Shown: positions 114-6,100 of the stretch, piece by piece
How positions within the stretch are numbered: position 1 is the first letter of the stretch
How the letters are laid out: the number at the start of each line of letters is the position of its first letter
Position numbers: made by a program
Origin: a virus
Lineage: Duplodnaviria > Heunggongvirae > Uroviricota > Caudoviricetes
Virus record (IMG/VR): IMGVR_UViG_2695420372_000015
DNA length: 7,681 nucleotides
Reading direction: 5' to 3' (one strand)

Positions 114-3100
114 TGACGGTTTATTAACCCGGACGGGCACCTCAGGAGGTGCCTTTTTTATTGACTGAAAACGAGAGGTCATCATGCGACATTTATACGG
201 AGCCATTTTATTCTGGACCGCACTGCTGACAGGCATTTCCCTTCCTGCACAAGCTAAAACCGGACACGGTGCATTTTCTGTGGGGTACACACAGGTGCAC
301 CCGGACGGTACGCCGGGGCTTTCCGGTACCGGCATCAGGGCCGGCGATCTGAAAGGGATTAATGTGAAATACCGTTATGAGTTCACGGATCACCTGGGCG
401 GCATTGTCGCGCTGAGTTATGCATCGGTGAAGAAAAGTGACACGATGAAGACGGGTGAAAATACCTTCCATTATGAAAGCCTGCGCGGTCGTTATGTCAG
501 TCTGATGGCCGGCCCTGTCTGGCAGCTCAGTGAGCGGGTCAGTCTCTATGGCATGGCCGGGATGGCGTACACCCGCTGGTCTGACAGTGTTCAGGATTAC
601 CGGCGTGATGAAGTGAAACCGGGGTATGTGAAGGAGACCACCACCGCCAGTGATGGTCATACTGCGCGTCATCTGTCGCCGGCCTGGAATGCCGGGATTC
701 AGTTCAGTCCCGTAGAGACGGTGGTTATTGACCTTGCTTATGAAGGTTCCGGCAGTGGCGACTGGCGCACTGACGGGTTCATCGTGGGTGTTGGCTATAA
801 ATTCTGATTAGCCAGGTAACACAGTGTTATGACAGCCAGCCGATTCAGGCGGGCTTTTTTGTGGGGTGAATATGGCAGTAAAGATTTCAGGTGTACTGAA
901 AGACGGTACAGGAAAACCGGTAGAGAACTGCACCATTCAACTGAAAGCCAGACGGACCAGCAGCACGGTGGTGGTGAACACGGTGGCCTCTGAAAATCCG
1001 GATGAAGCCGGTCGTTACAGCATGGACGTTGAGTACGGTCAGTACAGCGTCATTCTGTTGGTGGAAGGATTCCCGCCATCACATGCCGGAACAATCACAG
1101 TGTATGAAGATTCTCAACCCGGTACGCTGAATGATTTTCTCGGTGCCATGTCGGAGGATGACGTCCGGCCGGAGGCACTGCGTCGTTTTGAACTGATGGT
1201 GGAAGAAGCGGCGCGTAACGCAGAGGAGGCGAAGAAGAATGCCGGAGAGGCGGAGACATCAGCGAGGAATGCCGGCATATCAGCCAGTCAGGCAGAAGAG
1301 AACGCTGCAAATGCTGACACTTCAGCAGGGGATGCATCGGAGTCAGCCCGGCAGGCGGCAGAAAGTGCAGCCGCTGCAAAGCAGTCAGAGGAGGCGTCCT
1401 CGTCCTCGGCCTCTGAGGCCGCTCAAAAAGCCAGTGAGTCATTACAAAGTGCAGCAGATGCTGAGTTGTCAAAAAAGACGGCAGAAAGTGCAGCCGGTAA
1501 TGCAGCCAGGGATGCAACGACCGCAACAGAAAAAGCCCGGGAGTCAGCAGAAAGCGCACAGTCAGCGGAACAAAGCAGGATAGCGGCGGAAGAAGCCGTA
1601 AACCGAATCCCGACCGTGGTGGGGCCTCCCGGGCCAAAGGGGGAACAGGGGCCCGCGGGTCCTCAGGGGCCGAAGGGAGATAAAGGAGAGCGTGGCGACA
1701 CCGGCCCGGCAGGGGCAACCGGTGAACGGGGGCCGGCAGGTGATGCTGGTCCGGCAGGCCCGCAGGGGCCGAAAGGCGACAGGGGAGAGCGGGGAGAGAC
1801 CGGTCTGACGGGAAATGCAGGTCCACAGGGTCCAAAGGGAGATACCGGTGCGGCAGGCCCGGCAGGCCCACAGGGACCGAAAGGAGAAACAGGTGTGGCT
1901 GGCCCGGTAGGGGCAACCGGACCTCAGGGGCCGAAGGGCGACCCGGGGGAGACGCAAATACGGTTCCGTCTGGGGCCGGGAAACATTATTGAGACAAACA
2001 GCCATGGCTGGTTCCCGGATACAGATGGCGCACTCATCACCGGACTGACCTTTCTTGACCCCAAAGATGCCACACGGGTTCAGGGTTTTTTTCAGCATTT
2101 GCAGGTCAGGTTTGGTGACGGGCCGTGGCAGGATGTTAAGGGGCTGGATGAAGTGGGCAGTGATACAGGCAGAACAGGAGAATGACATGAACATACTAAA
2201 AAAACTTATGCAGCGTCTGTGCGGTTGCGGAAAGCATGATGGCCGTGAACACGGGCAGTCGCTTACAGTACAACTGCGACTGGGGCCGGCAGACATCCTG
2301 GAGTCAGATGAGAATGGCATTATTCCGGAGCAGGCCAGGGTAATCACGCAGGTGGTGATACTGGATGCGGATAAAAAGCAGATACAGTGCGTGGTAAGAC
2401 CGCTGCAAATCCTGCGTGCTGACGGGACGTGGGAAAATATTGGCGGAATGAAATAGCCGACAGCTTCACAAAACCGGAGTCCGGCTCCGGTTTTTGTTGT
2501 CATGTCCGGTGGATGTTTGTTAGGAAAGCAAAGATGGCAAAACTGCTGGAGGTTTTGTGGTTGAGTATGCCAATATAATTAATAGATTAAAGAGTTAGTT
2601 GTGAAGAAAATATGGATAAACAGGACGACGAATGCTTTCACCGATAAGGACAACTTTCCATAACTCAGTAAATATAGTGCAGAGTTCACCCTGTCAAACG
2701 GTTTCTTTTGCAGGAAAGGAATATGAGTTAAAGGTCATTGATGAAAAAACGCCTATTCTTTTTCAGTGGTTTGAACCTAATCCTGAACATTTCAGCATTT
2801 GCAGGTCAGGTTTGGTGACGGGCCGTGGCAGGATGTTAAGGGGCTGGATGAAGTGGGCAGTGATACAGGCAGAACAGGAGAATGACATGAACATACTAAA
2901 AAAACTTATGCAGCGTCTGTGCGGTTGCGGAAAGCATGATGGCCGTGAACACGGGCAGTCGCTTACAGTACAACTGCGACTGGGGCCGGCAGACATCCTG
3001 GAGTCAGATGAGAATGGCATTATTCCGGAGCAGGCCAGGGTAATCACGCAGGTGGTGATACTGGATGCGGATAAAAAGCAGATACAGTGCGTGGTAAGAC

Positions 3101-6100
3101 CGCTGCAAATCCTGCGTGCTGACGGGACGTGGGAAAATATTGGCGGAATGAAATAGCCGACAGCTTCACAAAACCGGAGTCCGGCTCCGGTTTTTGTTGT
3201 CATGTCCGGTGGATGTTTGTTAGGAAAGCAAAGATGGCAAAACTGCTGGAGGTTTTGTGGTTGAGTATGCCAATATAATTAATAGATTAAAGAGTTAGTT
3301 GTGAAGAAAATATGGATAAACAGGACGACGAATGCTTTCACCGATAAGGACAACTTTCCATAACTCAGTAAATATAGTGCAGAGTTCACCCTGTCAAACG
3401 GTTTCTTTTGCAGGAAAGGAATATGAGTTAAAGGTCATTGATGAAAAAACGCCTATTCTTTTTCAGTGGTTTGAACCTAATCCTGAACGATATAAGAAAG
3501 ATGAGGTTCCAATAGTTAATACTAAGCAGCATCCCTATTTAGATAATGTCACAAATGCGGCAAGGATAGAGAGTGATCGTATGATAGGTATTTTTGTTGA
3601 TGGCGATTTTTCAGTCAACCAAAAGACTGCTTTTTCAAAATTGGAACGAGATTTTGAAAATGTAATGATAATCTATCGGGAAGATGTTGACTTCAGTATG
3701 TATGACAGAAAACTATCAGATATTTATCATGATATTATATGTGAACAAAGGTTACGAACTGAAGACAAAAGAGATGAATACTTGTTGAATCTGTTAGAGA
3801 AAGAGCTGAGGGAAATTTCAAAGGCGCAGGATTCTTTGATTTCTATGTATGCAAAGAAAAGAAATCATGCATGGTTTGATTTCTTCAGAAATTTAGCCTT
3901 ATTAAAAGCAGGAGAGATATTCAGGTGCACATATAATACAAAGAATCACGGTATTTCATTCGGGGAGGGGTGTATCTATCTTGATATGGATATGATACTT
4001 ACAGGTAAGCTTGGTACAATATATGCTCCTGATGGAATTTCAATGCATGTGGATCGTCGTAATGATAGTGTAAATATTGAAAATAGTGCAATAATTGTTA
4101 ACCGTAGTAATCATCCTGCTCTACTTGAGGGACCTTCTTTTATGCATAGTAAAGTAGATGCTCATCCATATTATGATGGTTTGGGGAAAGGAGTTAAGAA
4201 ATATTTTAATTTTACACCATTGCATAATTATAATCATTTTTGTGACTTTATTGAGTTTAACCACCCTAATATAATCATGAACACAAGTCAGTATACATGC
4301 AGTTCATGGTAAAGGAATTTGATATAGTTTATTTTGTTGTAATAAATGATTTGCAGGGTATTAGATATAAACATGAAAATTCCCTCATTACAGTCCAACT
4401 TCAACTTTTCCGCCCCGGCAGGATACTCTGCTCCCATTGCTCCTAATCGTGCTGAAAATGCCTATGCGGATTACGTTTTGGATATAGGTAAGCGAATACC
4501 ACTTTCCGCAGCAGATTTAAGCAACGTATACGAAAGTGTAATACGCGCCGTCCATGACAGCCGTAGCAGGCTTATCGATCAGCATACAGTCGATATGATC
4601 GGCAACACTATACTTGATGCTTTGAGCCGCTCATAAACTTTTCGTGATGCCGTAAGCTATGGCATTCATATTCAGGATGCTGCAGATCGCAACGGATGAA
4701 GAGACATCGTTGTTGACAGTCTGGAAGAGGTATCGGGTGTTACTGAACCGTGTTGATACGTCAGTATCTCCAGATTTCGAGGGCCAGTAATACCTGATTT
4801 ATAGTTCGTAAACGTTCGTCTGACGGGATGCTGGAAGGATGAATGAGTTGCCAGATACTCAAAAACAATAGTTAATTTCCAGTTTTTTGTTGTCATGTCA
4901 TGGTGATGTTTGTTAAGAAAGTAAAGATTGATTCATTTTGAAGGTTGAAATGTATGCTATCACCATCTTCTGTAAATTTGGGGTGTTCATGGAATTCTTT
5001 AACCAGAAACCTGACTTTGCCTGATAATCGTGTTTTATCCCTCTGTAAGGGATGCTGCCGCTCACTCTGATAATGGGGCGCAAGTAAAGGTTAGCAACAG
5101 AACATATCGCGTTGTTTTAAGTGATAATAGGTTTTGCGTGACAAGAGAGAGTCATAGTGGATGTTTTACTAATATGCTGTATAGACTGGGATGGCCTAAG
5201 GGAGAGATCACCAGAAAAATTGAGGCTATGCTGAATTCATCGACAGTGAGCACGACTATAGAAAGAGGATCTGTTCGTTCGAACAGACCTGATTTACCTC
5301 CAGTGGATTATGCGCAGCCGGAGTTACCGCCAGCGGATTATACTCAGTCAGCGTTGCTGAGGCTTAGCAACAACAAATCACCCGTGCTAGGTAACGTTAT
5401 TGGTAAAGGTGGTAATGCTGTCGTGTATGAAGATATGGAAAATACAACAAAAGTGTTGAAGATGTTTACTATATCTCAAAGCCATGAAGAGGTGACAAGC
5501 GAAGTTCGTTGTTTCAACCAGTATTATGGTGCCGGGAGTGCAGAGAAAATATATGGCGATAATAGAGATATTATTGGTATTAGAATGGATAAAATAAATG
5601 GAGAATCGCTTTTAAATATTTCGTCCTTGCCAGCACAGGCTGAGCATGCTATTTATGATATGTTTGAGAGACTGGAAAAAAAGGAATTCTTTTTGTTGAT
5701 ACAACAGAAACAAATGTTTTATATGATCGTGTGAGAAATGAATTTAATCCAATAGATATATCATCTTATAATGTTTCTGATATTTCATGGAGTAGACATG
5801 AAATCATGCAATCTTATCATGGAGGAAAGCAAGATCTTATTAGTGTGGTATTAAGTAAGGTATAATATTTTTATACAGCCATATTTTTTATAATATTTAT
5901 TTGTTAAGGGGGTTTTGATATGTTACCAACAAGTGGCTCTTCAGCAAATCTTTATTCATGGATGTATGTATCAGGAAGAGGTAACCCTTCGACTCCGGAA
6001 TCAGTAAGTGAACTTAATCATAATCATTTTCTTACTCCTGAATTACAAGATAAACTTGATGTTATGATCTCTATATACTCAAATGCCAGAAATAGTAATG

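Follow-up and report, generated by a model that had tools for sequence, protein, structure and literature searches.

The 700-bp tandem repeat between stf and nleB2 in a draft lambdoid prophage contig is almost certainly an unmerged assembly overlap

Lambdoid prophages of enterohaemorrhagic and enteropathogenic Escherichia coli (EHEC and EPEC) carry exchangeable effector loci downstream of their tail-fibre genes, as in Sp3/CP-933K (nleB2, nleC, nleH and nleD). The stretch of DNA analysed here (the window; 7,681 nucleotides (nt), virus record IMGVR_UViG_2695420372_000015) is the whole of draft contig CYCD01000058.1 from assembly GCA_001286045.1. It contains such a locus, in which a block of about 700 base pairs (bp), running from the 3' end of the side tail fibre gene stf to the 5' end of the effector gene nleB2, appears twice in tandem. 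Has this prophage duplicated the junction between its tail fibre and its effector genes, or was the repeat made by the assembly? The apparent duplication is almost certainly an assembly artefact and not a real feature. The record is best explained as two pieces of one single-copy locus that were set side by side with an N between them, their 699-nt overlap being left unmerged. We assign this explanation a probability of about 93%.

As the repeat stands in the window, positions 2090-2788 are exactly identical to positions 2790-3488. The longest identical run at an offset of 700 is 699 nt, and the runs at the other offsets from 698 to 702 are no longer than 8 nt. Identity over 699 nt is far beyond chance. 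The similarity ends at both edges of the repeat and there is none beyond. The original prediction, which was made from the sequence alone, had described a perfect repeat with no similarity outside the unit, and this description was borne out. Its inventory of the unit is also accurate at the level of genes, every listed element having been located as described. The unit carries the final 96 nt of stf (2090-2185), an 89-amino-acid (aa) open reading frame (ORF) with AGGAG 7 nt upstream, a hairpin terminator, a 45-nt element (2491-2535), and codons 1-52 of nleB2 plus 1 nt (157 nt; 2632-2788). The round period of 700 was considered as a software signature and dropped, since the period is 699 nt plus one N.

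The window has an A at position 2789, unlike both the T at 2089 and the G at 3489, and this had been read as a junction base matching neither flank. The mismatch is correct for the letters of the window. In the deposited record, however, position 2789 is an N, and this is the sole difference between CYCD01000058.1 and the window. There is therefore no sequenced junction nucleotide. The A is a placeholder for an unknown base or a minimal gap, and no junction was ever sequenced. Preparation of the window had turned the ambiguous N into an ordinary base, by which a sequence-only reading can be misled.

The record thus splits into two pieces, 1-2788 and 2790-7681. The longest suffix of the first piece that is also a prefix of the second is 699 nt, with 0 mismatches, and merging across this overlap gives a single-copy sequence of 6,981 bp. 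At the pseudo-junction ...AATCCTGAAC, the end of the unit, meets TTTCAGCATT..., its start. The region around it (window positions 2779-2799) has inverted complementarity, AATCCTGAA / TTCAGCATT, in 8 of 9 bases (p ~0.02 by simulation). This was treated as chance, because the pseudo-junction is not real.

The ends of the two pieces coincide with positions at which related prophages differ from each other. Fifteen related prophage modules, taken from complete genomes and from phages, were aligned with the window. The first piece terminates with ...CCTGAAC, and the next base is a G/A site among nleB2 alleles. The second piece begins with TTTCAGC..., one base past a T/G site among stf alleles. The latter site closes a short cluster of positions at which the alleles differ (GGGTTTT followed by TTTCAGC, compared to GGGGCTG followed by TTTCAGC), and the modules with the G allele, 6 of the 15, match the window exactly over the next 103-379 nt. 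At the other edge, the second nleB2 allele, found at loci L008, L009 and L012, reads CCTGAAC followed by AATATAAG and has A at 3489, the preceding 100 nt being identical to the window. A single genome can carry both alleles at both sites. Strain 14EC017 (CP024134.1) does so, having three prophages with the stf-89-aa-nleB2 module (L008, L009 and L018) and two nleB2 alleles among them. Genomes of this kind are a ready source of ambiguity in short-read drafts of such strains. Judged with paralogues from other genomes, the repeat ends at repeat-ambiguous positions, and its breakpoints are not independent of assembly-graph branch points. The breakpoints of a real duplication would bear no relation to such sites. 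The density of polymorphic sites is about 0.09-0.12 in stf and about 0.06-0.10 in nleB2; with values of about 0.10 for stf and 0.07 for the 5' part of nleB2, the chance that two random breakpoints both adjoin such sites is about 0.007.

An exact look-up of the stf protein returned only two contigs, CYCD01000058.1 and CYEE01000020.1. The sister contig CYEE01000020.1 (92.7 kb; GCA_001284145.2) carries stf, the 89-aa ORF and nleB2 once each, and is 100.000% identical to the window over 668-2788 and 2790-7579, with 0 mismatches. The merged sequence shows 0 mismatches to it over 6,212 nt, up to the end of an IS66-family element at 7580, which is absent from this otherwise identical contig. Merging the overlap restores the arrangement of the close relative. 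The same order was found more widely. Both halves of the pseudo-junction are present in about 456 of 5,426 complete E. coli genomes, and in all 40 matches listed they are in single-copy order, 700-702 bp apart. Comparison with related prophages had been proposed as a check on the repeat and, as it was run here, found them to be single-copy, which points to an assembly error. The module of stf 3' end and 89-aa ORF is itself multi-copy, with a median of 10 places per genome for a 200-nt query. Where a genome has the nleB2 5' end two or three times, each copy lies in a prophage of its own and not in tandem. Tandem copies were considered for complete genomes with at least two nleB2 5' places; FORC 064 and RM14723 were inspected and are single-copy at the locus.

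The junction itself was not found elsewhere. No alignment over a 70-nt junction probe, with mismatch allowed, was obtained in the 5,426 complete E. coli genomes, and a junction pattern with N{0,10} was not found in GTDB (one genome per species), the JGI metagenomes or IMG/VR. A search with the window's literal A also found no match, which is uninformative, the A being a placeholder. The record, if read across the N, contains a 174-aa ORF that runs from the nleB2 start across the junction into the frame of the 89-aa ORF. This fusion protein has no exact match in a collection of 15 billion proteins, because a called product would contain an X in place of the N. No natural nleB2 fragment stopping at codon 52 was seen among the best places, and the nleB pseudogene of phage 434 aligns straight through the codon-52 site. 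A genuine duplication is expected to present a sequenced novel junction, and here the junction is an N.

The record could have arisen as follows. Each piece would have been extended from reads toward the other during assembly or gap filling, and each extension would have halted at the first base made ambiguous by reads from other prophages of that genome. The leftward extension of the second piece would have stopped at 2089 (T/G), unable to pass 2090, and the rightward extension of the first at 3489 (G/A), unable to pass 2788. Judging from the known alleles, these two sites are exactly where read-by-read or k-mer extension would turn ambiguous. The overlap would then have gone unrecognised, or not have been accepted, and a minimal gap would have been left. 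The record resembles the scaffold-gap false duplication, or 'negative gap', in that 100% identical blocks flank a gap character and merging them restores the arrangement of the relatives. SSPACE and ABySS may write a single n for negative gaps.

Negative gaps are mentioned in the literature (PMC8110574), and most false duplications are reported to have a gap, or wrongly filled sequence, between the two copies (PMC9516828). GapFiller extends both edges of a gap base by base and halts where there is no clear majority for the next base; closure needs overlapping extensions and an inserted length that fits the estimated gap (PMC3446322). A paper on a Sanger pipeline describes SSPACE and GapFiller as greedy and able to produce false joins (PMC5320598). 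Gap filling of the GapFiller type fits the observed pattern and would be one route to it. The published false duplications are mostly eukaryotic and caused by heterozygosity, whereas the likely cause here is ambiguity between paralogous prophages in a bacterial short-read draft.

On this reading the genome holds a single 89-aa ORF and a single nleB2 upstream region, and their second copies, like the promoterless stf fragment and the 174-aa fusion, do not exist. The original prediction had listed all four as products of the duplication, which is not supported. It had left the choice between a very recent event and an assembly error; the N, the agreement of the merged sequence with the sister contig and the position of the edges at ambiguous sites favour the error and not the biological event.

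A genuine, strain-private tandem duplication of 699-700 bp, with a junction that the assembler could not sequence and that was hence written as N, would also put the unit twice in the record. It would itself make branch points at both edges and could leave a one-base gap. Uniqueness and perfect identity of the copies are what a recent event should show, and the strain differs from its sister in at least one other structural event, the IS66 end at 7580. Nevertheless, the junction was not sequenced, and it occurs in none of the collections searched. It would also be blunt and lack microhomology, which is unusual for E. coli, a species not known to have classical end joining. Both edges lie exactly at paralogue-polymorphic sites and the sister with 100% identical flanks is single-copy. 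Because of the edge coincidence, the single-copy sister and the lack of the junction in the searched collections, it is very improbable that such a duplication of 0.7 kb is real in this isolate and merely went unsequenced at its junction. The products expected from it, a second 89-aa ORF and an in-frame fusion of NleB2(1-52), a linker and the PF06820 domain under the nleB2 upstream region, are to be doubted to the same degree. If they were real, the first 52 residues of NleB2, normally the region of the type III secretion signal, would be joined in frame to an entire tail-fibre C-terminal-domain protein and preceded by a copied nleB2 upstream region, a snapshot of how a phage structural protein could turn into a candidate secreted protein.

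It is less probable still that the scaffold is chimeric and wrongly joins pieces from two prophages of one genome, both of which contain the 699-nt module. Genomes can hold two or three prophages with the stf-89-aa-nleB2 module, and scaffolders do make false joins (PMC5320598). However, the merged flanks match one continuous sister contig with 0 mismatches, and therefore the pieces belong to the same prophage. Furthermore, inside the unit 6-19 sites distinguish the window from the paralogous modules that were examined, whereas none distinguishes the two copies. Least probable of all is a duplication carried by a fraction of the cells that were sequenced, with conflicting weak read support rendered as two copies and an N. 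Cells with new tandem duplications are appreciably frequent in bacterial cultures, but the same coincidence of the edges with polymorphic sites would have to be accepted, and there is no positive evidence for this event.

The argument for an unmerged overlap rests on the single-copy sister together with the fact that each edge falls at a known polymorphic site; the N alone is not proof. Several points weigh against it. A real blunt tandem duplication would also be ambiguous at its own edges and could leave an N, and the sister assembly ran through this region uninterrupted. This isolate would also have to carry the alternative alleles of sites 2089 and 3489, which are known from other genomes. 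The case was made from deposited records and their comparison. The accession GCA_001286045.1 was found neither in the literature searched nor in the supplements of a candidate study on atypical EPEC sequenced at Sanger. An attribution of this assembly to Velvet, SSPACE and GapFiller is a guess and was not used as evidence.

With the overlap merged, the true locus is the right arm of an ordinary lambdoid prophage and carries an effector cassette, in the order J-lom-stf-PF06820 ORF-nleB2-nleC'-nleH'-nleF (Table 1). Genes for effectors of the type III secretion system come after the tail genes (J, lom and stf) and the PF06820 ORF. Pfam matches were obtained to Ail_Lom, to phage_tail_N, Collagen and Phage_fiber_C, to SseK_NleB and to NleF_casp_inhib, and the RefSeq annotation of a 98%-identical locus agrees with this assignment. 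The locus shares 98% identity with prophages of strains that include O145:H28, and a hit was also obtained in Sp3 of strain Sakai. Phage 434 (OL657226.1, 658-4700) has the same stf-PF06820-nleB(pseudo)-nleC-nleH' module, ~95% identical to the window.

Table 1. Positions of the scaffold pieces, repeat edges, genes and other elements in the window
Feature	Position	Strand	Evidence or remark
Scaffold piece 1: gpJ C-terminus, lom, stf, 89-aa ORF, intergenic region, first 157 nt of nleB2	1..2788	+	
lom (Ail/Lom outer-membrane protein)	184..807	+	Pfam PF06316, E = 5e-51; annotation in relatives
stf side tail fibre, 437 aa: tail-fibre N-terminal domain, collagen repeats, PF06820 C-terminus	872..2185	+	
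Variable site bounding the overlap, left	2089..2089	+	T in window, sister and some relatives; G in 6/15 modules
Last 699 nt of piece 1 (first 'copy')	2090..2788	+	Same genomic DNA as 2790-3488
89-aa PF06820 'tail fibre C-terminal domain' protein, single real copy	2187..2456	+	
Hairpin and T-run after the 89-aa ORF, intrinsic-terminator-like	2470..2494	+	-21.2 kcal/mol, z = -4.3; again at 3170-3194
174-aa 'fusion ORF', artefact of reading across the N	2632..3156	+	
One-base gap placeholder	2789..2789	none	N in CYCD01000058.1, A in window
First 699 nt of piece 2 (second 'copy')	2790..3488	+	
Scaffold piece 2: stf 3' end, 89-aa ORF, nleB2, nleC stump, tfa remnant, broken nleH, nleF...	2790..7681	+	
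Scaffold piece 2, far end: after nleF, prophage end, then IS66-family end	within 2790..7681	+	
nleB2, intact, 326 aa, SseK/NleB arginine glycosyltransferase effector	3332..4312	+	Pfam PF24688, E = 5e-180; annotation
Variable site bounding the overlap, right: nleB2 codon 53, CGA or CAA	3489..3489	+	G in window
IS66-family (ISCro1-like) element end, ~100 nt, starts GTAAGCGACTCGTCAGA	7580..7681	+	Prophage/chromosome border; contig stops inside

The PF06820 domain (Phage_fiber_C) is found in stf at aa 363-426 (1958-2149) and in the 89-aa ORF at aa 28-89 (2268-2456). The genuine locus therefore already has two adjacent, diverged PF06820 modules. The ORF at 2887-3156 is the same 89-aa gene, seen again in the second piece. 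The hairpin that follows the 89-aa ORF was missed on the plus strand by a consensus terminator scan and was confirmed by folding. The 45-nt element adjoins this terminator, and a third, 87%-identical copy (4884-4928) is located after the tail-fibre-assembly remnant, upstream of nleH. It looks like a boundary common to effector cassettes.

Downstream of nleB2, nleC is cut to a 96-aa stump (4346-4636), followed by the tail-fibre-assembly remnant (about 4680-4800) and an interrupted nleH (5030-5734). The same decay of nleC and nleH is found in strains 14EC007 and RM14723; full-length nleC and nleH are kept in FORC 064 and in a second prophage of 14EC017. In relatives, the prophage end after nleF sits beside yodB/zinT. 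The left end of the window falls in the gpJ C-terminus and its right end (7580-7681) in the terminus of the IS66-family element, and both are typical stopping points of short-read assemblies.

If the record were read as biology, it would resemble the short-junction tandem duplications of enterobacteria, which, as described by the Roth laboratory, are reportedly RecA-independent and formed at microhomologies. The repeat is head-to-tail, shorter than 1 kb and of perfect identity. Unlike those duplications, it lacks both microhomology and a sequenced junction and was not found a second time, and its edges are tied to paralogue polymorphisms and not to any recombination substrate. On paper, the 174-aa ORF also resembles a chimera produced by terminal reassortment, by which a new protein is said to gain the N-terminal secretion signal of a type III effector (Stavrinides, Ma and Guttman, 2006), because residues 1-52 of NleB2 are in frame with the complete PF06820 protein. 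This ORF, however, exists only by virtue of a reading frame across the N placeholder. The suggestion that tandem duplication at this site is a route to new effector fusions is not supported, as the duplication is read here as an unmerged contig overlap. Compared with the exchangeable effector loci of EHEC and EPEC prophages nothing material differs: the locus is an ordinary one, and the decay of its nleC and nleH is shared by several relatives.

Records of this kind are a trap for scanning by sequence only, since an N shown as a normal base makes a scaffold gap look like a non-templated junction nucleotide. Two quick checks that tell such an artefact from a real tandem duplication are whether the deposited record has an N at the junction and whether the edges of the repeat adjoin paralogue polymorphisms. 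An analysis of gene content or effector repertoire that took the draft record literally would wrongly include one more PF06820 gene, one more nleB2 promoter region and a novel 'NleB2 fusion', none of which exists. The locus beneath is a prophage effector cassette of a well-known type, and the finding is mainly a caution.

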